Notes under the pieces: generated by a model | Database searches by the model: none | What the model saw: only the letters and a program-made list of their open reading frames with translations | What the model was told of the DNA's origin: nothing | Shown here: one piece after another, positions 2,497 through 25,381 of the stretch | Layout of the letters: the number at the start of each line of letters is the position of its first letter | Position numbering within the stretch: the stretch's first letter is position 1 | Source of the DNA: an uncultured delta proteobacterium | Lineage (GTDB): Bacteria; Myxococcota; Myxococcia; Myxococcales; Myxococcaceae | Direction: 5' to 3' | DNA length: 42,501 nt | Assembly (NCBI GenBank): GCA_963771175.1 | Contig: CAVYSY010000029.1 | Span: forward strand, 1 to 42,501 | Made by a program: the position numbers and the translations under genes

Positions 2497-3964
<1,468 letters not shown>

Positions 3965-4112
3965 GCCGTGCGGGCGTGTGGAGGCGTTGGCAAGACGCCA
4001 CGTCCTCCCGAGTCACCCGCTCCAGGGTAACGGTCTTGTTGCTCACCACCAGACTCCGAAATCACCGGGGGATGGTCCTCACTCTATCCGGTGCTCAAGG
4101 CTTCGGGGCCAT

Positions 4113-4831
4113 ATGGCCCGAGCCCTTCCGCATCGAAAGCTGCTGTCGCTGTTCCTCGCCGCGCTGCTGCTGGCCGCGTGCGCCACCTCCTCACCTGCCT
4201 CGCACGCATGGGAGGGAGACAGGGCCTGACGACACCACCTCCTGCGACGACCCCGACGCTGACCAGTGCGTCGTGCTCGCCTGTGACGAGGGCAAGTGCG
4301 CCTTCTTCGACTGTGCGGACGTGGACCCGGAGGCGCTCACGCACGTGCCCCTGGCACACGGCGCGGAGCTCGCGCAATTCCATCGTCCGCCCTCTCGTGG
4401 CCCCGGGATTCAGCGCAACTGGCGACGCGCGGGACTTCGAGAAGGCGCCCGGCCCCGGCTGACCTTCCACTTCCGCTACCGCCAGGGCTTCCTCCCCGCC
4501 TTCCCCCGCCTCGAAGGCAAGCTGATCAAACACCACCTCTTCCCCCAGGCTCAGGAGTTCAGGGAGTGGTTCATCAGGAATGTGGATCAACATCCACGAG
4601 TGGACGATGCTGGTCCCGGAGCAGGTGCACCTGCGCATCCACCGCGGCGCGAATGGCGGACTGTGGAACGAGGCGTGGCGACAGTTCCACGAGGCCAATC
4701 CAGGCCAGGTGCCACGGGAGGTACTGATCCGCAAGGCCTTCGAGCTGGCCCTGCGCTTCGACATCGCCGGTCCCCTCAGGCCGTACTACTCTCCGGTGCC
4801 TCCACCCGGTCCCCAGCTCCTCGCTCCTTGA
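4113..4831 (+). CDS. SitA6/TIGR02269-like polymorphic toxin lipoprotein (copy 2); two +1 frameshifts (~4215, ~4582) as sequenced
   Basis: Stitched from ORFs 3867..4229, 3976..4962 and 4580..4831; LLLAAC lipobox; KHHLFPQ and HLRIHRGANGGLWNEAW motifs. Confidence 0.85.
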
Positions 4832-5581
<750 letters not shown>

Positions 5582-8204: not shown

Positions 8205-8249
8205 CACGGGGTGGCAGGCTGACCGCGTCCTCGGACGCGGTCGCCTGAC

Positions 8250-9209
8250 TCAGGAGCGGTTGCCCGCGAGCCGCTCGGCGACGTCGATCACCTTCGCCTC
8301 GACGTTCGTGTTGTCCAGCTTGTCGATCTCCGCGATGCCGGTGGGGCTGGTGACGTTGACCTCGGTGAGCCAGTCGCCAATCACGTCGATGCCCACGAGG
8401 TACAGGCCGCGCTCCTGGAGCGAGGGCTTGAGTCGGGCGCAGATCTCCCGCTCACGCGGGGTGAGCGACGTCTTCACGGGAGTGCCACCGGCGGCCATGT
8501 TGCCGCGGTGGTCGTCCTGCGCGGGGACACGGAGCACGGCGCCAGCGGGCTCGCCATCGACGAGGATGATGCGCTTGTCGCCCTGGCGGCTCTCGGGGAG
8601 GTAGGCCTGGGCGACGATCGCCTTGCGACCACCGAGGGTGAGGACCTCCAGGAGCGAGCGCATGTTCCGATCGCCGGGCTGGAGGAAGACGATGCCCTGG
8701 CCACCGAAGCCCTCGACGGGCTTGAGGATGGTGCCCTGGGGGTGGCTGGTGACGAATTGGGCGAGCGAGACGAGATCCCGGGCGATGAGCGTCTCGGGCA
8801 TCAGCTCGGGGAAGCGCAGACCGAAGAGCTTCTCGTTGGCGTCGCGGATGCCAGTGGGGTTGTTGAGGAAGACGGGCCCCTTGTCCCCGCACAGCTCGAC
8901 GAGCTGGGTGGCCAGGATGAAGTCGGCGTCGACGGGCGGATCCTTCCGCAGGAAGAGGACGTCGAGGCTGGAGAGGGGGCGAACCTCCTCGTCGAGGATG
9001 TCGAAGTGGCGGCCGGGCTCGCGGCGCACGGTGACGGTGCGCATGCGGGACTCGGCGCGGGAGCCGCCGAAGCGGAGCCAGGGCTGCTCGAAATAGCGCA
9101 CCTGATGGCCGCGCCGCTGGGCCTCGAGCATGAGGGCGAAGGTGGAGTCATGATCCACCCGGACCGTCTCGAGCGGGTCCATGAGGAAGCCAAAGGTGAG
9201 CGCGGCCAT
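8250..9209 (-). CDS. gshB: Glutathione synthetase
   Basis: FLMDP...DSTFALMLEAQRRG, LRKDPP, NEKL, GDKRIILVDG, RGNMAAGG, GIDVIG..LTEVNVTSPTG; ATG at 9209 with GGAGG RBS. Confidence 0.95.
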   Translation of the reverse strand: MAALTFGFLMDPLETVRVDHDSTFALMLEAQRRGHQVRYFEQPWLRFGGSRAESRMRTVTVRREPGRHFDILDEEVRPLSSLDVLFLRKDPPVDADFILATQLVELCGDKGPVFLNNPTGIRDANEKLFGLRFPELMPETLIARDLVSLAQFVTSHPQGTILKPVEGFGGQGIVFLQPGDRNMRSLLEVLTLGGRKAIVAQAYLPESRQGDKRIILVDGEPAGAVLRVPAQDDHRGNMAAGGTPVKTSLTPREREICARLKPSLQERGLYLVGIDVIGDWLTEVNVTSPTGIAEIDKLDNTNVEAKVIDVAERLAGNRS

Positions 9210-9306
9210 GGTGAGAGAGCCTCCTTGAGGGCGGGGAATGATACCCGGTGAGTAGACGGACGGAGGAGGGCGCGCGACAGAAAAAGCACATGGAGCGGGG
9301 GAAGGG

Positions 9307-10104
9307 TTACGGAGGACGTGGTTGACACGCAGCAGGCCCGGCGTCCGGGCAGGCAACCTCGTTCTCGGTGCGGGGCCGGGTGCAGGCCATCTTCAGCTTC
9401 ACGACGCCCGACTTCGTGTAGCGGAAGGGTCCGAGGGTGCACTGCTCGTCCTCGGGACAGGGGCTCCGTCGACAGTTCTCCCCCAGCACCTTCACGCACA
9501 CCGAGACGCCATCCTCCATGGGAACGCACTGCTGGCCCTCGGGACAGCTCCTGCCCTCACAGCTGGGCATGCAGGAGGGCCCGTTCAGCCCGTCCCGACA
9601 GAAGAAGCCCGCCGCACAACTCTCGGGCTCATCCAGCTCGCAGGGACGACCACACCACCCGTCATTGCAACGAAGCCCCTGCGCGCAGGTGTTCTTCTCT
9701 GGACCCATGGCAAGTACACAGGCCTCGCCCTCCTTCCTACGTCCCGGATCGATACACACGCGCACCAGAGGCCCTTCGTCCAAGGTGCGTAAGGTCTGGC
9801 AGATGCCCCCATCTCTGCACTGCAAGTCCGTCATGCACCAGCTGTCGCTGCAGAGTCCCTCACGCTCGTGAGCTGAAAAGCTCAAGCACCCGAGTGGCGG
9901 CTCACAATCCGCGCCCTTCCAGCACTTCTGCGAATAGGTCTGGAGCCTCCAGGTCTCTTCCAACTCAAGCCGAGGGCTCTCCTTCGCCATCCTCGCGCGT
10001 TCCTCGGACCAGGACTTCCACGCCAGTCCCATGATGAGGACGAGCGGCAAGGGAAGCAGGACGCAGAGAATGCTGGCGAGGAAGGGACTCCGCTTCACTT
10101 GCAC
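9307..10104 (-). CDS. Membrane-anchored cysteine-rich (disulfide-repeat) hypothetical protein
   Basis: N-terminal TM helix followed by many Cys in C-x-x-x-x-x-C / CPxGxxC repeats typical of myxobacterial surface proteins. Confidence 0.7.
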   Translation of the reverse strand: MQVKRSPFLASILCVLLPLPLVLIMGLAWKSWSEERARMAKESPRLELEETWRLQTYSQKCWKGADCEPPLGCLSFSAHEREGLCSDSWCMTDLQCRDGGICQTLRTLDEGPLVRVCIDPGRRKEGEACVLAMGPEKNTCAQGLRCNDGWCGRPCELDEPESCAAGFFCRDGLNGPSCMPSCEGRSCPEGQQCVPMEDGVSVCVKVLGENCRRSPCPEDEQCTLGPFRYTKSGVVKLKMACTRPRTENEVACPDAGPAACQPRPP

Positions 10105-10361
10105 GTCACCTTACAAGGCTGGGTTCTACAGTCCCAATCCTCTACCTTGTCATCGGGGCAGTACCTCTCCTCATCTTCCTCTTCATCCTCGTCATCCCTC
10201 TGTCTCGCGTTCCTGAACTCTTCCTTGCGCTCCCGAAAGTTGTCGTTCAGATCCTTCTCAAAGGCTTGGTCGAGCTTGCCGCCTTTCCGGTAGGTATGTG
10301 GGCACCCCGTCCCCAGAGCCAAGAGCCACACAGCAGCTGCGATCATCGCGCGTTGAGACAT
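10095..10361 (-). CDS. Small hypothetical lipoprotein (88 aa) with acidic tract
   Basis: MSQRAMIAAAVWLLALGTGC lipobox, DDEDEEEDEE tract, four C-terminal Cys; overlaps the next gene by 10 nt. Confidence 0.7.
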   Translation of the reverse strand: MSQRAMIAAAVWLLALGTGCPHTYRKGGKLDQAFEKDLNDNFRERKEEFRNARQRDDEDEEEDEERYCPDDKVEDWDCRTQPCKVTCK

Positions 10362-10503
10362 GAGGCCCCCCTGACTGGATGATGTCTCAAGGGTCGGAGG
10401 ACCCCTGCAGTGAAGCGGTGCGCCATCCACCCCGGATGACCACTGCAGGACACCGCACCCGGGGAGGGGACCTTGATGCAGTGCCTCGACTTCGAGGACG
10501 CTC

Positions 10504-11811
10504 GTGTCCGTGCCCCTCGTCAGAGCGGATAGCCGGAGCGCCGCCTCCTCCCTCCACGAGCTGGAGCGGCATCAGCGTCGCCGCGAGCAGGGCATCCCCA
10601 CGCTCACCGTGCTCGCCGGCCCTCCCGGCACCGCGGCGTCCCTCTGGCGTCGCTGGCTCGACTCGCTCCACCGGCCGGCCTGTACGGTGCTCGCCGCGAG
10701 CGAGCTCGAAGTCGCTCGCGCGTGGACGGAGACGCTCGCACGCCTCAGGAGTCTCGAAGCGGATGCGGCGGACTTCCTCGGTGGGGCCGCGGGCCTCGCT
10801 CCAGGTGAATTGCCCTCCCGGCTCCAAGGAAAGACAGCTCACGAGCGCGAGGTCCTCCTCCAGGAGCTGCTCCCCCTGGCTCCCGACGGAGACTCCTCCG
10901 CCGCGTGCAGGGGTCTGCTCCAACCACAAGTTACCCACAATTCAGGGGGTCCCCTCGACCCGGTGCTCGTGGCACTGGGTGGCGATCCCCTCCGAGCCCT
11001 CGCGGCCCTGCATGCGCTCGTCCCGCCGGGCTCGGCTCCGGCCCTGTTGCTCACCGGCTCCGGCGTGGACGGGGTGACTCGTGCGGCCCGGGTGGCCGCG
11101 AAGCTGTGTGCCTCCATCCCGTCCCTCGTCATCGCCCTGACCACGGACCGACCCGCGCTCGACGCGTACCTGCACGGCAGTGAGTCCCAGGCACTCGCCA
11201 TGGTGCGCGAGGGTCTCATCGAGCTCGCCGCGCCCTCTCCCGAAGCCCTGGGGCGCAGACTGGAAGCACTCGGAGTGAACCGCTCGGAAGCACTCTCCGG
11301 CTCGCTGGCCCGGCTCGCGGCGGACGGAGTTCCGGACGAGGTCCTCACCCTCTTCGGCGAGGCAGCTCGCGAGCAACAACGGGCCTCCCGGGAGGACGGA
11401 CCCCAGGACCGTGCGCGCAGCACCGAGGAGCGATTCCTCTCCGCGTTCCTCGAATCGCTCCCGTCCACCCAGGGGCTCTTCGAGCTCAACGCCTCCCCGG
11501 GCTTCCGCCTGGCGGGCAGGCAGGTTGAGGTGGACCTGCTGGCCCGGCGGCTCTCCATCGCCGTGGAGATCGACGGCTACCGTCACTTCCAGGATGCCAA
11601 GGCGTACCGGCGCGACCGGCGCAAGGACCTGGCGCTGCAACAGCATGGGTATGTGGTGCTGCGCTTCCTCGCCCAGGACGTGGTGGCGCGGCTCGAGGAA
11701 ATCCTCGACACTATCTCGGAAGTCATATCGCAACGACGCGAGGCCCTCTCCCAGGGGTCCTCGCCGGGGGAGGCCGAACATGGAGGGGCAGGAGATTTCT
11801 CGTCTGGGTGA
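10504..11811 (+). CDS. DUF559 / Vsr-like PD-(D/E)XK endonuclease-domain protein with ~300-aa N-terminal extension
   Basis: C-terminal RSTEERFL...VEVDLL...IAVEIDGYRHF...RRDRRKD..LQQHGYVVLRF is the DUF559 signature; N-terminal TLTVLAGPPG resembles a degenerate P-loop. Confidence 0.85.
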   Translation: MSVPLVRADSRSAASSLHELERHQRRREQGIPTLTVLAGPPGTAASLWRRWLDSLHRPACTVLAASELEVARAWTETLARLRSLEADAADFLGGAAGLAPGELPSRLQGKTAHEREVLLQELLPLAPDGDSSAACRGLLQPQVTHNSGGPLDPVLVALGGDPLRALAALHALVPPGSAPALLLTGSGVDGVTRAARVAAKLCASIPSLVIALTTDRPALDAYLHGSESQALAMVREGLIELAAPSPEALGRRLEALGVNRSEALSGSLARLAADGVPDEVLTLFGEAAREQQRASREDGPQDRARSTEERFLSAFLESLPSTQGLFELNASPGFRLAGRQVEVDLLARRLSIAVEIDGYRHFQDAKAYRRDRRKDLALQQHGYVVLRFLAQDVVARLEEILDTISEVISQRREALSQGSSPGEAEHGGAGDFSSG

Positions 11812-12859
11812 GCTGGTGCTGGCGTGGCTGCTGACACGCGGGGAGGGGTGGGGTGCGCGGAGTGAGTTGTCTCGTGCACTCAAGTCGTTCGCCGATCACC
11901 GGTGGAACCCCAGCGAGTGGAATACCCGACTCGACGAGTCGCTCGCGGCGCTCGAGGCGGGTGGGCTCGCCCTGCGCAAGGCGCGCAATGCCCTGGAGCT
12001 CACCGCCCAGGGACGCGCGCATGCCCTGGCGTGGCTCGGGGTGAAGCGCCTGCCCGAGGGCACCACCTGGAAGAAGCTCAAGAACACGCACCTCCTGGCA
12101 CGGGTGCTGGAGCTGCCTCCGTCCAACGGCAACCTGACCCGGCTGGGCACCGCCAATGGGATGCGCGCGGTGCTCGTGCAGAAGCACCTCGGCACCGCGT
12201 CCCCCGGCTCCAGGAGCCTCACCCAGGTGCGCGACGCGCTGTGCTGGAAGCAGCTCGGCGTCGAGTCGGACAAGCCCTTCACCCTGGCCGCCGTGCAGGC
12301 GGTGCTGCTCGCCCGGGCCCTCCAGGCCTCGCGCGAGGCCGAGCCCATGCAGGCCATGCGTCAGCTCGCGGCGAAGAGCGTGGGTGCCCGGCGCGCGGAC
12401 GCGGACAGCCTCCGTCTGGCGGCCCTGCGCTCCTGGCTCGTTCCCTCCTCGGAGCCCCTCACCCCGGCCCCGCGAGCCGAGCCCGTGGCCGAGCAGCCGG
12501 CTGCCTCCCCCCCGGGGAGCAACGAGCTGGCCGGCCCCGTGGATACGTCGTTCTTCGATGCGACTCCCCGCCAGGAGGATCTCCGCACCTTCGCCGAGCG
12601 GGTGAAGGAGGCGGCGAAGGCCTCGACGACGGGGCACTTCGGCGAGGACAAGATCTTCATCTCCCACGTCTGGCGCACCCTGCGGAACCAGGTCCAGGGC
12701 CTGGACGATCGGACCTTCAAGGACAGGCTGGTCGAGGCCAACCGGGAGCGGCTCCTCTCCCTGAGCCGGGCCGATCTGGTGGAGGCCATGGATCCGACGG
12801 ACGTCGCCGACTCGGAGACGCGCTACCTCGGCGCCACCTTCCATTTCATCGCCTTGTAG
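11780..12859 (+). CDS. Hypothetical protein with probable winged-helix DNA-binding domains
   Basis: ATG at 11780 after GGGAGG, overlapping the nuclease gene; N-terminal LELTAQGR wing-like motif; C-terminal FGEDKIFISHVW...FKDRLVEA...LSLSRADL domain; native codon usage. Confidence 0.75.
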   Translation: MEGQEISRLGELVLAWLLTRGEGWGARSELSRALKSFADHRWNPSEWNTRLDESLAALEAGGLALRKARNALELTAQGRAHALAWLGVKRLPEGTTWKKLKNTHLLARVLELPPSNGNLTRLGTANGMRAVLVQKHLGTASPGSRSLTQVRDALCWKQLGVESDKPFTLAAVQAVLLARALQASREAEPMQAMRQLAAKSVGARRADADSLRLAALRSWLVPSSEPLTPAPRAEPVAEQPAASPPGSNELAGPVDTSFFDATPRQEDLRTFAERVKEAAKASTTGHFGEDKIFISHVWRTLRNQVQGLDDRTFKDRLVEANRERLLSLSRADLVEAMDPTDVADSETRYLGATFHFIAL

Positions 12860-12893
12860 TCGCTTCCTTCCGCGCGGGTGCAAGGGGTTCCCG

Positions 12894-15800
12894 ATGAGCC
12901 AGTCCGATTTCCGCCTCGCCGCCTTCCTCTCGGACCGCACCGAGGTCTTCCACTCCATCCAGCACCGCCATGAGATCTGGCGGCCCGATCCGTTCGACGT
13001 GGAGCGGGTCCACCAGGAGGCGCGCACCTCCTTCGAGCGCCTGCTCACCCGTGCCACCACGCCACCGGGCCTGGACTCGGGGCGCATCCTGCTGCTGCTC
13101 GGCGAGTCCGGCTGCGGCAAGACGCACCTCGTCCGCGCCTTTCGTGCCCGCGTCCATGAGCAGTCGCTCGGGTTCGTGGGCTACATGCAGATGACGACGT
13201 CCACGTCCAACTATGGGCGCTACGTCCTCAACAACCTCATCGAGTCGCTCGACCTGCCCTACTGCGAGCCCTCTCAGCCCGGCTCCGGATTGATGAAGCT
13301 CTCCAGCGCGCTCTTCTCGCGCTGTGGCAAGTGGGCCGCCGGCCTGTCGCAACCCGACACGGACCCGGACGACGTCCATCAGATCATCAGCGACGCGGCC
13401 GACGAGCTCAGCACCCTGCCCGCCTTCGCGGACCTCGAGCTGGATCTGCTGCGCGCGCTCCTCTACCTCCAGCGCAACGAGACGCCCATCAAGAAGCGCG
13501 TCATCAAGTACCTGCGCTGCGAGGATCTCTCCGAGTCGGACCGCAAGGTGCTCGGAGGCATGGTGCCTCGCATCCACGACGAGCATCCCAAGCAGATGGT
13601 GGAGGATCTCGGCCGGCTCGATGCGGGCACTGGAGCACTCGCTCGTGCTGTGCGTGGACCAGCTCGAGGACATCTACGAGCCCAACGACGCGGGCAACCC
13701 CTTCCGGCGGGCCATGCAGACGCTCTGCGACCTGGCCGACCGGGTGCCCTCGTCGATCATCGTCATCAGCTGCCTGCGAGACTTCTGGCAGGCGATGCAC
13801 GCGCAGCTCACGCGGCCCATGCTGGACCGGATCACCTTGGATCCCGCGCCCATCACCCTGCAGGGCCTGCGCACCGCCGAGGAGGCCCGCCTCATCGCCG
13901 AGCGGCGCCTGGAGCATCTCTACGAGCAGGAGAACGCGCCCTTCGATCCGGCCGAGCCCACCTATCCCTTCCCCCACGAGGGCTTCGAGGCGCTGGCCGG
14001 CATGCGCGCCCGCGACGTGCTCAACGAGTGCCGCCGCTACCGGGAGCTCGCCATCCGGGAGGGCCAGCTTCCCGAGCACTTCCCGCTCGTGGACGCGCTG
14101 CCGGGGAAGGGCGAGCAGGGTGGCACTCCACAGCCCCCGCCCACCGCCTCGGCGCTGGATCCGCTCTGGAACGATTTCCGGGCCGCCTACGCGGGCGCAC
14201 CTCCGGATGATGACTCCGAGCTGGCGGTGCTCCTCGCCTGGGCCTTGAGGGCCAGCGCGGACGAGGTGGACACCGGACACCGCTTCGAGGCCAAGACTCT
14301 CGGCGAGTCCATCCACGTGGACATCTCCCCCGGAGACACGAAGCTCCACGTCGCCCTGTGCAACAGCAAGCCCAACGGTGGGGCACTCGCGCGACAGATC
14401 GACCAGGCCCGGAAGGACGCCAAGGGCCGCACGCCCGTCGTCGTCCGCTCCACCGCCTTCCCCAGCAACCCGAAGACCCAGGCCGCCGAGGAGCTCGGCA
14501 GGCTCATCAGCAAGGGCGGGCGCCGCGCGGTGCTCGAGGACAGCGATCACCGCACCCTGCTCGCGTTGCGCGAGTTCCGAAAACAGCACGAGGCCCGCGC
14601 GGACCTCGCCGACTGGCTCCGCTCGGCCCGGCCCCTCACGCAGACCAAGTCACTGCGCGACATCCTCGACCTGGACCACCTCCGTCCCGCGGCCCGTCCG
14701 GCTCCCGCTTCCCAGAAGCCCGCCGCCGCTCCAGCCGTCGCCACCCAGCCGCTCCCCGTGATTCGCACCGAGCCAAAGCCCGCCGCTCCTCCGGCTCCCA
14801 CTCCCGCGCCCAGGGAGCCGCCCCGGAAGCTCGAGCCCCTCCGCATCGGTGTGCTGGACAGCCTCTCGAAGGACTCCGTCTCCCTCGAGCCCCGGGAGCT
14901 CATGCAGCACGCCGCGTTCCTCGGTGGCTCCGGGAGCGGCAAGACGACGCTCGCGCTCAACGTGGTGGAGCAGCTCCTGCTCCAGGGCATCCCCACCATC
15001 CTCGTCGATCGCAAGGGAGACCTCGCCGGCTACGCCAACGACGCCGTCTGGACGCGCCCGCTCGATGACCCGCGCCGCTCCGAGCGTCGGGCCCTCCTGC
15101 GCGAGCGGCTCGACGTGGCCCTCTTCACTCCCGGGCACCCCCACGGTCGTCCGCTCGCCATCCCCATCGTCCCCGAGGGGCTCGACTCGCTGCCCGAGTT
15201 CGATCGCAAGCAGGCCACCCAGCACGCGGCCGAGGCGCTCGGCGGCATGCTCGACTACAAGCACAACGGGCGCGACAAGTCCTGCCGCACCATCCTCACC
15301 CAGGCGATTGATCAGCTCGTGCAGCTCTCGCCCGGCGGCGTCTCCCTGGAGAAGCTCGTCTACTTCATCGACGAGAAGGATCCTCGCCTGGTGAACGCCG
15401 TGGGCAGGCTCGACACCAAGCTCTTCGAGAAGCTCGTGCAGGACCTGGAGACGCTCCGACTCAACTCCTCCGTGCTGCTGGCCAGTGGCGGCGAGAAGCT
15501 CGACATGGATCTGCTGCTCGGCCGCGGCGCCCACGCGCAACCGGGCAAGACGCGCCTGAGCGTCATCAGCACCAAGTTCCTCGGGGACAACAACAACGTC
15601 CTCTTCTGGGTGTCCCAGCTCCTCATCGAGGTGTCGCGCTGGCTCAACCGCAATCCCTCCAACGCGCTGCAGGCCGTCCTCATGTTCGACGAGGCCGACC
15701 TGTACCTGCCCGCCACGCGCCAGCCCGCCACCAAGCAGCCCATGGAGAACCTCCTGCGGCGCGCTCGCTCCGCGGGCCTGGGCCTGATGCTCGCCACCCA

Positions 15801-16104
15801 GAGCCCCGGCGACTTCGACTACAAGTGCCGCGACACCATCCGCTCCTGGTTCGTCGGCCGCGTGAAGGAGAAGAACTCGCTGGAGAAGATGAAACCCATG
15901 CTCAGCGAGGCCCGCGTGGACTTCTCCGCGAAGATCCCCACCCAGGTCACCGGCGAGTTCCACGTCCTCCGAGAGGGCAGGGTGGAGCGCGTCAAGGCCG
16001 ACCCCTCCGTGCTCGCCACCGAGCAGCTCTCGGATGATGAGTTGTTGCGCCTCGCCGCGCGTACACTGCCCGCCGCCGAGGAGGCCCGGCGCACCGGTTC
16101 GTGA
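12894..16104 (+). CDS. ~1069-aa fusion of an N-terminal AAA+-type ATPase and a C-terminal HerA/FtsK-like (DUF87/DUF853-type) ATPase; +1 frameshift near 13619 as sequenced
   Basis: Walker A GESGCGKT with Walker B LVLCVDQLE; Pro/Ala linker; second Walker A GGSGSGKT, LMFDEAD, RRARSAG and LATQSP HerA motifs. ORFs 12894..14210 and 13324..16104 join at ggccggct(c)gatgcgg. Confidence 0.85.
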
Positions 16105-16169
16105 TTCCAGTGAGGGGGAGTGAATGGCCGCCTACGTCAAACCCACCCCCCTTCTGGGCGCACTTTTCA

Positions 16170-16217
16170 GAAACCTGTCCGACAGTCGGACAGGTTTTTC
16201 CAGAACGCGCCCGGAGG
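16170..16217 (+). repeat. 48-bp REP/MITE-like element with 27-bp palindrome AAACCTGTCCGAC-A-GTCGGACAGGTTT
   Basis: Perfect 13+1+13 palindrome at 16171-16197; 44/48 identical to the reverse complement of 25099-25146. Confidence 0.9.
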
Positions 16218-16377
16218 CCCCCTACTGGACCGCCTTTCCTCGGATGGCTTGGATGCCGCCTCCACCCCCCGCGCACACCAGGCTGTGCACCAGCCTTGAA
16301 GCTCGCGAGTCATGCCTCCGGTGAAACCAGACCCGCTCCGGTGCGTCAACGAGACGGACACCTCCGGAAGAGGGGAG

Positions 16378-18181
16378 TCACCCCTCGGGGATGTCCGTCA
16401 GCGCCAGCCGGAACTTCGCCGTCTTGCCCGCCTCGATGGGCACCGACAGCTTCCGCCGCTTCCCGTCCTCGCCCTTGATGCGCAACAGGTGTCTGCCCAC
16501 CGGCACCGGCGTGTTGAACAGCGGTGTCTTCCCCAGCGAGCGCCCGTTCAGGAACACCTCGGCCTGCGGCAGGATGAGCAGCGTCAGCGATCCCTGCTTC
16601 ACGCTCCGCACGGGCTCGCCCTCGCCCTCCTTCTTCGCGGCGGCTGGCGCGTCCTCCTTCTCCTGCGTCTCCGCCGAGGGCTGGGCTCCCACGGGCGGCT
16701 GCGCGGCCACCTCTGGAGGAGTGCTCGTCGTCGGCGGCTCGATGGGCCGCATCGCCGTCAGCTCCGCCACGTTCGGGAGCGGCTCGGAGGACTCCTGCGC
16801 TTTGATCGCCGCCACCAGCTTCATCGCCCCGAAGCCCCCGCCTCCCAGCACCAGCAGCCCGAGGATCACCGCCCAGAGCCGACCCTTCCCCTTCTGCTCC
16901 GGCCCCACCTGCTCGTGCTGCGCCGTGACCGCCGTCGTCCGCTGCTCCCGCGTCACCCGCCTCCCGGTCGTGGCCACCGGACTCGTCGCCGCGGCCTCGT
17001 CCGGATCCACCCCACGCGTCGGCCGCGCGGGCTCCTCGCGCTCCCGCCGTGGCGCCGGATCCTGGCCCGTCCGCTGCTTCGCCTCCGCCTTCGCGGGACT
17101 CGGCTCCGACGGACTCCGGGGCCTCGCCGCCCCCCAGCATCCGCGCCATCCCCGAGTCCACCTGCGCGCTCGCCTCGTCCGCGCTCTCCAGCAGCCGGCG
17201 CGTCCCCTCCATCCGATCCTGGAAGTTCTCGCGCATGAAGGCCGCGCGCTGCTCCGCGTCGAAGAGCAGGTTCCCCGCCGCCGCTTCGATGGCCCGCGCC
17301 ATCTCGCGGCCGTTCGGGTAGCGCTCCTCCCGCTCCCTCGCCAGCGCCTTGAGCACCACCGCCGACACCGCCTGCGAGATGGATGGCACCCGCGCCGACG
17401 GCACCGGGATGGGCGCCTCGAGGATCATCTCCATCTCCTGGCGCTCGGTCTGCGCGGCGAAGAGGCGCTCGCCGGTGAGCATCTCGTGGAGCATCACCCC
17501 CACGGAGAAGAGATCGCTGCGGCCATCGAGCGGCTCGCCGCGCACCTGCTCGGGCGACATGTACCCGGTGGTGCCCTTCACCACGCCCACCTGCGTCTGT
17601 CCCCGGCCGTCTCGCGCCTTGGCGATGCCGAAGTCCAGCAGCTTCACCACCCCGTCGTACGTCACCATCACGTTCTTCTGTGCCACGTCCCGGTGGATGA
17701 CGGGGTAGGGCTTGCCCCCGGGTGTGGTGAAGGTGTGCGCGTAGTGCAGCGCCAGGCAGACGTCTCGCGCCACCGACAGGGTGAAGCCCGGCGGCAGCGC
17801 CCTCGCCCTCCGGCGGCACACCCCGGCGATCTGGTTGAGGTTCTGCCCCGCGATGAACTCCATCGCCAGGAAGAGGCCCTCGTCGTCCTGCCCCAGCTCG
17901 AACACCTGGGCGATGTTGGGGTGGTTGAGCGCCGCGGTGATGCGTGCTTCATCCAGGAACATGCGCTCGAACTGCTCGTCGTCCCGCGCGCCCGGGAGGA
18001 TGCGCTTGAGTGCTACATACTTGCGGAATCCGCCCGGCCCGGAGGTGAAGCCCAGGAAGAGCTCCGCCATGCCTCCCACCGACAGCTGCGCGATCACCTG
18101 GAACTTCCCGATGCGCTCGCCCCAGTGCAGATCGAGGTTGGCGGAGCTGGCTGTCGAAGCGCCTCTGGCCGGTGCGGACAT
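16378..18181 (-). CDS. Hanks-type protein kinase with atypical RDVAQKN catalytic loop (DspB-like), TM segment and C-terminal PEGA domain; +1 frameshift near 17108 as sequenced
   Basis: LSVGGMAEL, VALKRI, HRDVAQKN, DFG, GTTGYMSPEQ, DLFSVG; the downstream frame (ORF 16378..17010) gives TM LWAVILGLLVLGGG and PEGA AEVFLNGRSLGKTPL; restored ~600 aa. Confidence 0.9.
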
Positions 18182-18189
18182 GGGGTGGA

Positions 18190-18460
18190 GGATAATCCAC
18201 AACCCCTGTGGACGGCCTGTGGATGGACCCTGGCCTCCCTGTGGATAACTGGCGGGCTGATCCAACCCCTGTGGGTGGCCGGGGAAAAGCGCCAACTTCC
18301 CCACATGTAGCAGAAACGGAGAACCTCAGTCCTTCCGAGAGGTTACGGACTTTTCCACAAGCCCACACCCCCTGCTGTTGCTCCTATTTGATTCAACATC
18401 TCAATTCACTCAGTACAGAAACAGAGGGGCCTGGGGAAAGTGTGGGGTTGTGGATCGCTC
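18190..18460. other. Probable chromosomal replication origin (oriC)
   Basis: Intergenic cluster of DnaA-box-like 9-mers: TAATCCACA 18193, TGTGGACGG 18207, TGTGGATGG 18218, TGTGGATAA 18240 (perfect), TGTGGGTGG 18270, CGGGGAAAA 18280, TTCCCCACA 18297, TTTTCCACA 18351 (consensus), AAGCCCACA 18359, TGGGGAAAG 18432, TGTGGGGTT 18441, TGTGGATCG 18449; DnaA-trio-like run 18372-18389; AT-rich tract 18385-18425; skew flips here. Confidence 0.82.
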
Positions 18461-25146: not shown

Positions 25147-25372
25147 GCCAGACTGAACCCGGCGGCCTCCCTGGTTTCGGAGCGGATGCCCGCCCTCCGC
25201 GGCATTCAGCAACCTCGTGGGCCTGGCGCTCCATGACCTCTCCGAAGCGACCCATCATGGGGAGGCTCCCGCGCCAGCACCGCGGGAGAGTGGACGGCCG
25301 GATTGTGGAGAACTTGGGGACGGAGCAGGGCGGCTCGAAACGTCTTCGTGTAACCGATGGGCCCCGAGCCAC

Positions 25373-25381
25373 TTATCCACA
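25373..25381 (+). promoter_or_regulatory. Perfect DnaA box TTATCCACA 4 nt upstream of the msrB start
   Basis: Exact consensus 9-mer; near-matches at 25058 (TTGTCCACT), 25079 (TGCGGAAAA) and 25304 (TGTGGAGAA) in the same intergenic region. Confidence 0.55.

Follow-up and report, generated by a model that had tools for sequence, protein, structure and literature searches.

Closest described systems

In the NurA-HerA DNA end-resection complex, a HerA-type ATPase is encoded beside a nuclease. The closest described arrangement to the locus treated here has been predicted by computation only, namely the Orc/CDC6-coupled HerA/FtsK “capture systems” (Rakesh, Aravind & Krishnan, 2024; Nucleic Acids Research, PMC10853773). 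The sections of that paper on this class list its parts as an Orc/CDC6 AAA+ ATPase, an inactive restriction endonuclease (REase), an active REase, a HerA/FtsK ATPase and a winged helix-turn-helix (wHTH) domain, spread over one or several polypeptides, with the inactive REase as an insert that separates the AAA+ core from a C-terminal wHTH. The same sections propose the class as anti-invader systems and describe neighbourhoods with features of both mobile elements and defence systems; they also cover DndFGH, in which DndH has a HerA/FtsK domain and DndG is a multi-wHTH protein. A later article from the same group (2026; PMC12839542) restates, in its passages on the subject, the theme of ORC/Cdc6-like ATPases, wHTH proteins, nucleases and HerA/FtsK ATPases being paired. 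Here we describe a locus at positions 10504-16104 of a 42,501-nucleotide stretch of DNA (the window), which is contig C29 of assembly G000, a genome assigned to Archangium by the names that near-identical proteins carry (9.8 Mb in 58 contigs, completeness score 81.7%, ∼69% G+C). Open reading frame (ORF) calls fill this locus with three co-directional genes, g1, g2 and g3 (Table 1). The trio is a real, strongly conserved three-gene system, and we regard it, with moderate confidence, as a variant of the predicted capture systems: a self-contained defence module acting on foreign DNA.

As far as those sections of PMC10853773 describe them, the capture systems share with the trio an AAA+ ATPase, a HerA/FtsK ATPase, an REase-fold nuclease and a winged-helix binder, as well as a proposed logic of localising on DNA, pumping it and cutting it. 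The HerA/FtsK component is recognisable in g3 (Pfam HerA_C, 31.6 bits against a cut-off of 22; DUF87, 27.1 bits against 23.2; PDB HerA, E 4.6e-7) and the winged-helix component in residues 1-90 of g2 (Z 10-12). A preliminary description of this stretch, made from its letters alone, had put the trio forward as a candidate undescribed system that PADLOC should not match in full. That expectation held, as no PADLOC model fits and no NCBIfam model comes near its cut-off for any of the three proteins. Since the published computational class has much the same domain set, however, the trio is not wholly undescribed. It nevertheless departs from the class as the text presents it. The active nucleases there belong to “two families”, one of them shared with AbiJ systems; that of the trio is of the Vsr/DUF559 type and sits on a dead AAA+ domain. 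The capture systems are placed in “mobile gene neighbourhoods”, whereas entire genera of myxobacteria have the trio as a fixed part of their core genome. Those sections of PMC10853773 mention neither the dead-AAA+-Vsr fusion of g1, the obligate g2 family and the genus-wide fixation nor a variant with YcaO-TfuA, and the supplement may list the family.

Conservation and linkage of the three genes

The ORF coordinates confirmed the three-gene layout of the preliminary description, with g1 and g2 overlapping by 32 nt and a gap of 34 nt between g2 and g3. The trio is intact and syntenic in 17/17 genomes of the genus, and g3 occupies one open frame of 1087-1159 aa in all 17 other genomes of the genus. 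Order and orientation are kept in 18 loci of the genus, 14 of which have gshB beside the trio, and one genome has an additional trio, likewise ordered, that is 38-48% identical (L023). A pattern scan of all prokaryote species genomes found at least 249 stretches encoding g3 relatives, of which 79 loci were kept. g2 lies immediately before g3 in 69/69 loci from Myxococcota and Planctomycetota with at least 1100 nt upstream, ten of the 79 being left out of this count as cut short, and g1 precedes g2 in 53 of the 64 loci with at least 2500 nt upstream. Because the 18 genus loci and two phyla keep both order and orientation, the linkage goes far beyond chance, and the co-conservation of the operon, which had been set as a check on the preliminary description, was found at both levels. 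g2 and g3 are an obligate pair, and the gene preceding them varies (g1, YcaO-TfuA or EAD1-trypsin); thus the invariant core is g2-g3, with g1 its commonest partner.

Within the genus, the trio is 57-89% identical, compared with 89-93% for the neighbouring gshB. The fastest-evolving regions are the DNA-binding and dead-ATPase parts (mean identity 33-34%), against 53-60% for the enzymatic cores.

Nine of the 11 loci without g1 are from Polyangia (Sorangium, Polyangium, Minicystis and a Polyangiaceae metagenome-assembled genome (MAG)), and three Polyangia loci (L059, L060 and L067) were scanned with Pfam. L059 (464-15922) and L060 (631-16002) each hold a packed operon that runs from a Ser/Thr kinase-AAA_16(-TPR) gene through a 210-216-aa protein without a family, YcaO, TfuA, g2 and g3 to a NACHT/WD40 and an EAD1-trypsin gene; DUF7002, DUF6119 and PLD-like genes follow. 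The stop and start codons of YcaO, TfuA and g2 overlap in L060, and gene sizes and order in L063, L064, L066 and L103 are as in these two loci. In L067, EAD1-trypsin lies immediately before g2. A YcaO-TfuA thioamidation pair within a conflict-type operon was not met in the relevant portions of published descriptions of related systems. Other loci lacking g1 are a second copy in Cystobacter (L068) and two from Planctomycetota MAGs (L065 and L074).

In L065, an Isosphaeraceae MAG, a divergent gene for a Uma2-family putative restriction endonuclease (3636-4205) lies just upstream of g2-g3, which may be a coincidence. In L022 (7300-8735; G003:C17, Vitiosangium), an AraC-family regulator (DUF6597 plus HTH_18) stands between g1 and g2, and a duplicated 43-aa fragment of the 3′ end of g1 adjoins g2.

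Distribution across Myxococcota is patchy: an even sample of 301 genomes from 136 genera yielded g2 in 75 genomes and 13 genera. Several large-genome genera have it in all of their genomes (18/18, 29/29, 6/6 and 4/4), and all large social myxobacteria examined keep the trio, while g2 was not found in small-genome genera of the same family or in most other Myxococcota families searched. A g3 tree was built from 61 full-length single-frame proteins of the 79 loci, leaving out 18 partial, multi-frame or stop-containing rows. It resolves into four clades: Polyangia (support 100), Planctomycetota with one Bacteroidota MAG (support 83), an Archangium/Cystobacter core (support 100), and Myxococcus/Corallococcus/Pyxidicoccus (support 100), the last of which includes second copies from Cystobacter and Vitiosangium and the copy of Hyalangium versicolor. 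The second trio of Vitiosangium (L092) has upstream of it, at 2700-4696, a DUF5131 gene (PADLOC candidate PDC-M30B/M41B, e-102) and a PDC-M30A-like gene, and downstream of it, at 15076-16906, five small ORFs, an HTH_3 gene and a tyrosine recombinase; these surroundings are likely a mobile or defence island.

Domain architecture of the encoded proteins

Table 1: Coordinates in the window of the three genes, their domains and motifs, and the frame-shifting base.
Feature	Position	Strand	Description or evidence
g1	10504-11811	+	435 aa; inactive Orc/Cdc6-like AAA+ domain plus DUF559/Vsr-type endonuclease
g1 N-terminal AAA+ fold (residues ∼10-300)	10531-11403	+	VIA-align, Foldseek, motifs
g1 degenerate Walker A, GPPGTAAS	10618-10641	+	No lysine
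g1 Walker B position, PALLLTG	11038-11058	+	No acidic residue
g1 C-terminal DUF559/Vsr-like endonuclease	11401-11748	+	Pfam, fold matches, invariant residues
g2	11780-12859	+	359 aa, ATG at 11780; winged-helix protein
g2 N-terminal winged helix-turn-helix (residues 1-90)	11780-12049	+	VIA-align on predicted structure
g2 C-terminal alpha/beta domain (residues 268-359)	12581-12856	+	Predicted structure; most conserved part of g2
g3	12894-16104	+	1069 aa equivalent; AAA+ ATPase, middle domain, Pro-rich linker, HerA/FtsK-like ATPase; 1-nt insertion
g3 N-terminal AAA+ ATPase	12894-13884	+	Pfam AAA_22, AAA_16
g3 Walker A #1, GESGCGKT	13101-13124	+	Motif
Extra C shifting the g3 frame	13619	+	Comparison with relatives
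g3 Walker B #1, VDQLED	13654-13671	+	Motif
g3 middle region	13885-14694	+	AAA+ lid, conserved domain, helical part
g3 HerA/FtsK-like ATPase	14860-16101	+	Pfam HerA_C, DUF87; PDB profile matches
g3 Walker A #2, GGSGSGKT	14923-14946	+	Motif
g3 Walker B #2, MFDEAD	15682-15699	+	Motif

The protein features named in the preliminary description were largely recovered. It had read g1 as a Vsr-like nuclease with a degenerate, P-loop-like N-terminus, and Pfam places DUF559 at residues 343-408 (34.6 bits, cut-off 20.6; E 1.9e-8) behind a Walker A motif that has lost its lysine. The structure of g1, predicted from an 18-sequence alignment, has a predicted local distance difference test (pLDDT) score of 86.6 and a predicted template modelling (pTM) score of 0.83. 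In VIA-align comparisons, residues ∼300-415 match the DUF559 protein 3hrl (Z 12.7, root-mean-square deviation (rmsd) 2.2 Å over 94 residues), the catalytic domain of I-Bth0305I (Z 11.8) and Vsr 1cw0 (Z 9.9). The g1 nuclease has the same fold as these enzymes; it differs from them in being fused to a 300-residue dead AAA+ domain and in belonging to a fixed operon with two partner genes instead of being encoded on its own. Nuclease residues D344, E355, D357 and H361 and an RRDRRKD stretch are invariant among the 18 g1 sequences, which come from two phyla.

The best whole-domain match for residues ∼10-300 of g1 is Cdc6 1fnn (Z 10.5, rmsd 4.7, 205 residues), with further VIA-align matches to ORC, TnsC, RdrA and BrxC, and Foldseek returned RdrA at E 4.1e-4. 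As modelled, the N-terminal fold resembles AAA+ ATPases of the initiator and transposition-helper kind. With neither a P-loop lysine nor an acidic Walker B residue, it is a dead ATPase. An hhalign comparison of g1 with g3 was not significant (E 0.061), though the P-loop and Walker B strands align.

g2 belongs to no family in Pfam, PADLOC or NCBIfam. Its predicted structure (pLDDT 86.0) begins with the winged helix that the preliminary description had thought probable, which matches RosR, TubR, MarR and PadR in VIA-align (rmsd ∼2 Å over ∼75 residues), and continues with a helical middle, a disordered Pro-rich linker (231-262) and a C-terminal alpha/beta domain. Mean pairwise identity is 34% in the winged helix and 56% in the C-terminal domain, where F293, H296, R330, A331, D332, F354, H355 and F356 are invariant. 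Foldseek of g2 against PDB and viral models gave generic winged-helix matches only (E≥0.017), and a protein-atlas search with the C-terminal domain gave only unnamed clusters, with scores of 0.92 and 0.89, that serve as leads. In a library of 1.84 billion proteins, g2 matched 2821 representative clusters (50% identity) at E≤0.001, and the family is therefore large.

g3 is the double ATPase of about 1070 aa that had been described, and both of its Walker A/B sets were located. Its N-terminus matches AAA_22 (2.4e-7) and AAA_16 (2.7e-7) in Pfam. Around the second Walker A motif, a 12-sequence g3 profile searched against PDB matched HerA (8wiv, 4.6e-7), YjgR (1.9e-6) and the coupling protein IcmO/DotL (1.1e-4). 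Both Walker A/B pairs and many further residues are invariant among 12 g3 proteins from Myxococcota and Planctomycetota, which share ∼50% full-length identity. A phmmer search of residues 1-420 against PDB found no match below E 0.09. The middle region has no consistent Pfam family across 22 members, and its protein-atlas search likewise produced only unnamed clusters (score 0.87), to be taken as leads. In the alignment its conserved domain follows an alpha-beta-beta-beta-alpha-beta-like pattern with CN[KS] in the ExK position, which may indicate an inactive REase-like fold.

Short stretches resembling the extreme C-terminus of g3 (39 and 29 aa; 72-74% identity) occur at G000:C3:12438-12551, elsewhere in the genome of the window, and at G003:C17:123379-123465, just downstream of the g3 of a relative.

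Comparison with other HerA-associated systems

DndFGH resembles the trio in combining a HerA/FtsK ATPase, an REase-fold nuclease and a separate winged-helix recognition subunit. However, no DndF, DndG or DndH family or domain was found in the trio with Pfam, PADLOC or NCBIfam, the PADLOC matches to DpdF and DpdH are weak and at the level of the P-loop or DUF559, and no phosphorothioate modification genes lie near the trio. The NurA-HerA pair differs in its nuclease, since g1 is Vsr/DUF559 and neither g1 nor g2 gives a Pfam match to a NurA family at E≤0.1; ahead of its HerA core, g3 carries an additional AAA+ ATPase and a middle domain, and g2 has no counterpart in that complex. The SIR2-HerA and DUF4297-HerA systems also pair a HerA-family ATPase with an effector, and g3 shows partial PADLOC HerA matches down to 2.6e-10 over its C-terminal 65-120 residues. 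Neither SIR2 nor DUF4297 is present in the trio, though; the HerA_antiphage model, with a cut-off of 800 bits, gives 14.2, and the effector of the trio is a Vsr-type nuclease and its ATPase a double motor.

One g3 ortholog is labelled “DUF2791 family P-loop domain-containing protein” by NCBI and BREX system ATP-binding protein by UniRef. BREX type 2 and the “BREX-related capture” arrangements, as outlined in PMC12839542, are similar in that ORC/Cdc6-like ATPases are paired with wHTH proteins, nucleases and HerA/FtsK. In the trio, however, BrxD reaches only E 0.02 and 14 bits (cut-off 350), and the 22 window ORFs scanned include no PglZ, PglX, BrxC, GNAT or TGT gene. The C-terminal part of g3 is also matched at 5e-19 by the mad8 model of MADS (PDLC04140), which was considered and set aside. 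The same model matches ordinary ABC-transporter ATPases at L050 2161-3705 and L085 1166-2113 (2.2e-18 and 2.7e-14), so a lone mad8 match is not to be read as a MADS component, and the trio contains no other mad gene. In the portions of a 2020 eLife survey of conflict systems of multicellular bacteria that bear on this (PMC7159879), HerA appears in the reference list only, YcaO and TfuA do not appear and the trio is not mentioned. A literature search for HerA with DUF559 in defence, and for HerA/DUF87 in Myxococcus xanthus, gave nothing relevant.

Proposed function and rival explanations

We infer a mechanism beyond the domain content as follows. The winged helix of g2 and the AAA+ module of g3 would recognise some feature in the DNA of a foreign element as it enters or replicates, which would trigger ATP-dependent assembly. 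The HerA/FtsK ring of g3 would reel in the captured DNA, and g1, docked through its dead AAA+ domain on the AAA+ layer of g3 or on g2, would nick or cut it. Alternatively, g1 may cut the host's own DNA as a suicide response.

The preliminary description had proposed a DNA-translocating nuclease directed against phages or plasmids or, alternatively, a chromosome-maintenance machine. Of these, the former is partly supported and is judged the most reasonable reading. A constant g2-g3 core with changing effector genes is, by analogy, typical of conflict systems. The spread of the trio is patchy, with a separate Planctomycetota clade and second copies, one of which stands beside a PADLOC candidate and an integrase, and the parts that evolve fastest are those for DNA binding and the dead ATPase. 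Several observations weigh against the favoured reading. Fixation in whole genera (17/17, 18/18, 29/29 and 6/6) at one chromosomal site is unusual for a defence system. The window copy sits among housekeeping genes (nrfHA, gshB and a Ser/Thr kinase), not in the defence island that had been looked for, and the neighbours are ordinary metabolic genes in 4/4 Planctomycetota loci and both Myxococcaceae loci examined. The plasmid collection held one distant HerA only, on a Tsukamurella plasmid, and no copy of the trio, while the phage records gave no match. Orc/Cdc6 matches of the g3 N-terminus are weak (ORC-CDC6-like, E 0.079; NCBIfam BrxD, E 0.02; PDB Cdc6, E 0.1).

Genus-wide fixation and housekeeping neighbours make chromosome maintenance the main rival. 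The trio would then be a housekeeping maintenance or DNA-repair machine of large-genome myxobacteria, in which a HerA/FtsK motor and a Vsr-type nuclease process the cell's own DNA at stalled forks, at breaks or during chromosome handling in sporulation, by analogy with NurA-HerA and FtsK. We consider this unlikely overall, although presence in every genome of several genera (17/17 in its own genus; 18/18, 29/29, 6/6 and 4/4 in others), stable synteny beside gshB and strong purifying selection to the present, as seen in the synonymous differences reported below, all speak for it, as does the position of the Archangium trio in the origin-proximal 1% of the chromosome. That last point fails in Myxococcus- and Corallococcus-type genomes, however, and a maintenance role sits poorly with the failure to find the genes in the small-genome genera of the same family or in most other Myxococcota families searched, with their reappearance across phyla in Planctomycetota and in second copies, and with the replacement of g1 by YcaO-TfuA or EAD1-trypsin in Polyangia. 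The trio also evolves faster than the adjacent gshB, and g1 is not NurA. The mobile-element features reported for such neighbourhoods in the relevant sections of PMC10853773 raise a further alternative, that the trio is the domesticated remnant of the DNA-handling module of a mobile element, with its initiator-like AAA+ domain, FtsK/HerA pump and winged-helix site recognition once having served DNA transfer or replication, in the manner of FtsK-like conjugation pumps, and that it now has no defence role or a different one. Weak g3 matches to conjugative coupling proteins (TrwB_AAD_bind, 1.2e-4; IcmO/DotL, as above; TraD; CedD) are consistent with such an origin, and so is the presence of an integrase or transposase close to the L092 and L067 copies. 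Against it, integrase, relaxase and replication genes and repeat boundaries are missing from most loci examined, no copy came up in the plasmid and phage collections searched, the nuclease is conserved and its catalytic residues are intact, and the chromosomal site is fixed across the genus; we judge this explanation highly improbable.

A more specific form of the favoured defence reading is that fruiting myxobacteria (Myxococcus, Corallococcus, Cystobacter and Archangium) all keep the trio in their core genome as a constitutive barrier to extrachromosomal DNA, built on a g2-g3 core that can be rewired. This is a speculative proposal, to which we assign little weight at present. To our knowledge, autonomously replicating plasmids are very rare in myxobacteria and foreign DNA is hard to establish there, and the barrier, if real, would help to explain both. 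Its g2-g3 sensor-motor core would likewise be rewirable to other outputs, such as the YcaO-TfuA thioamidation pair or EAD1-trypsin in Polyangia. Myxobacteria are important producers of natural products, and the trio may bear on their genetic engineering. The family is large and highly conserved, and g2 has no curated family. It would give the predicted Orc/CDC6-HerA/FtsK capture class a first concrete representative that is tractable, because the genetically workable Myxococcus xanthus carries an intact copy (L085). It raises the questions of how a dead AAA+ domain works together with an active AAA+ ring and a HerA/FtsK pump to aim a Vsr-type nuclease, why a defence-like module is fixed in whole genera, and what role the g2-g3 core plays when coupled to YcaO-TfuA.

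The frame break in g3

An indel at 13619 within g3 had been pointed out in the preliminary description, and comparison with relatives confirms it: against CTGATG in six relatives, the window has CTCGATG and thus one extra C. It is the only non-triplet gap common to 8/8 relatives within 8249-16104. Frame 0 encodes residues 1-242 up to this base and another frame the remaining 827 residues from an ATG at 13621, so that the Walker A and Walker B motifs of the AAA+ domain are separated. The extra base is absent from the contigs of public runs X1, X3 and X4, which are 98-99% identical to the window; run X2 has no contig across 13578-13625, and all four runs differ from the window. With the frame restored, differences from near-identical strains are synonymous in 8/9, 12/14 and 11/13 cases, on both sides of the break, which argues that g3 was under purifying selection until very recently. 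RNA runs X17-X20 contain just 5-7% of the sampled words and have no bearing on expression.

The extra C is thus confined to this assembly and reflects either an error in the consensus or a mutation of very recent date; if it is real, the protein of this strain should be dead, judging by the motifs that it divides. We hold the two explanations in even balance. An error, with g3 intact in the organism, would fit a base that no relative shares, the almost entirely synonymous differences on either side of it and an assembly in 58 contigs with a completeness score of 81.7%. A genuine, very recent inactivating mutation would fit the position of the base outside any homopolymer run, and its being the sole frameshifting gap in ∼8 kb of comparable sequence argues that the assembly is not generally indel-ridden. 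The source reads are not among the four runs compared, and broken copies occur in other assemblies too, g3 lying in more than one frame in 4 of the 79 related loci and containing stops in 4 more.

Position relative to the origin and neighbouring genes

The preliminary description had also placed a putative oriC about 2 kb from the trio. DnaA-box-like motifs that cluster at 18193-18359, some 2.1 kb downstream of g3, explain this idea; three sites of ≤1 mismatch fall within 170 bp there, one of them perfect. A second pair lies at 25304-25381, and the whole window has 7 such sites against 1.35 expected, scored against the DnaA-box consensus; the local GC skew changes sign near 18 kb. The placement did not hold in complete genomes. 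In four complete relatives the distance between dnaA and the trio is 60-80 kb (in this genome the two are on different contigs), and the cumulative GC-skew minimum of one complete relative falls between ∼-25 kb and +10 kb of dnaA, i.e., ∼60-100 kb from the trio. In complete Myxococcus/Corallococcus-type genomes the trio is ∼2 Mb into the record. Origin proximity is therefore loose, lineage-specific and probably incidental. Because the skew minimum of the relative lies elsewhere, the cluster at 18193-18359 is possibly a DnaA-titrating or DnaA-regulated site, not oriC.

The trio in the window is flanked on one side by nrfH/nrfA, gshB and a Cys-rich protein and on the other by a Ser/Thr kinase. 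An Rfam scan of the window gave no match. Elsewhere in the window are two truncated genes, a Gmx_para_CXXCG gene at 3614-3961, which matches positions 122-234 of the 236 in its profile, and a DUF2380 lipoprotein gene at 4580-4828, which matches positions 120-187 of 187; these may be decayed paralogues or further assembly frame breaks. Just after both of them, at 4856-5578, lies a full-length Gmx_para_CXXCG gene.

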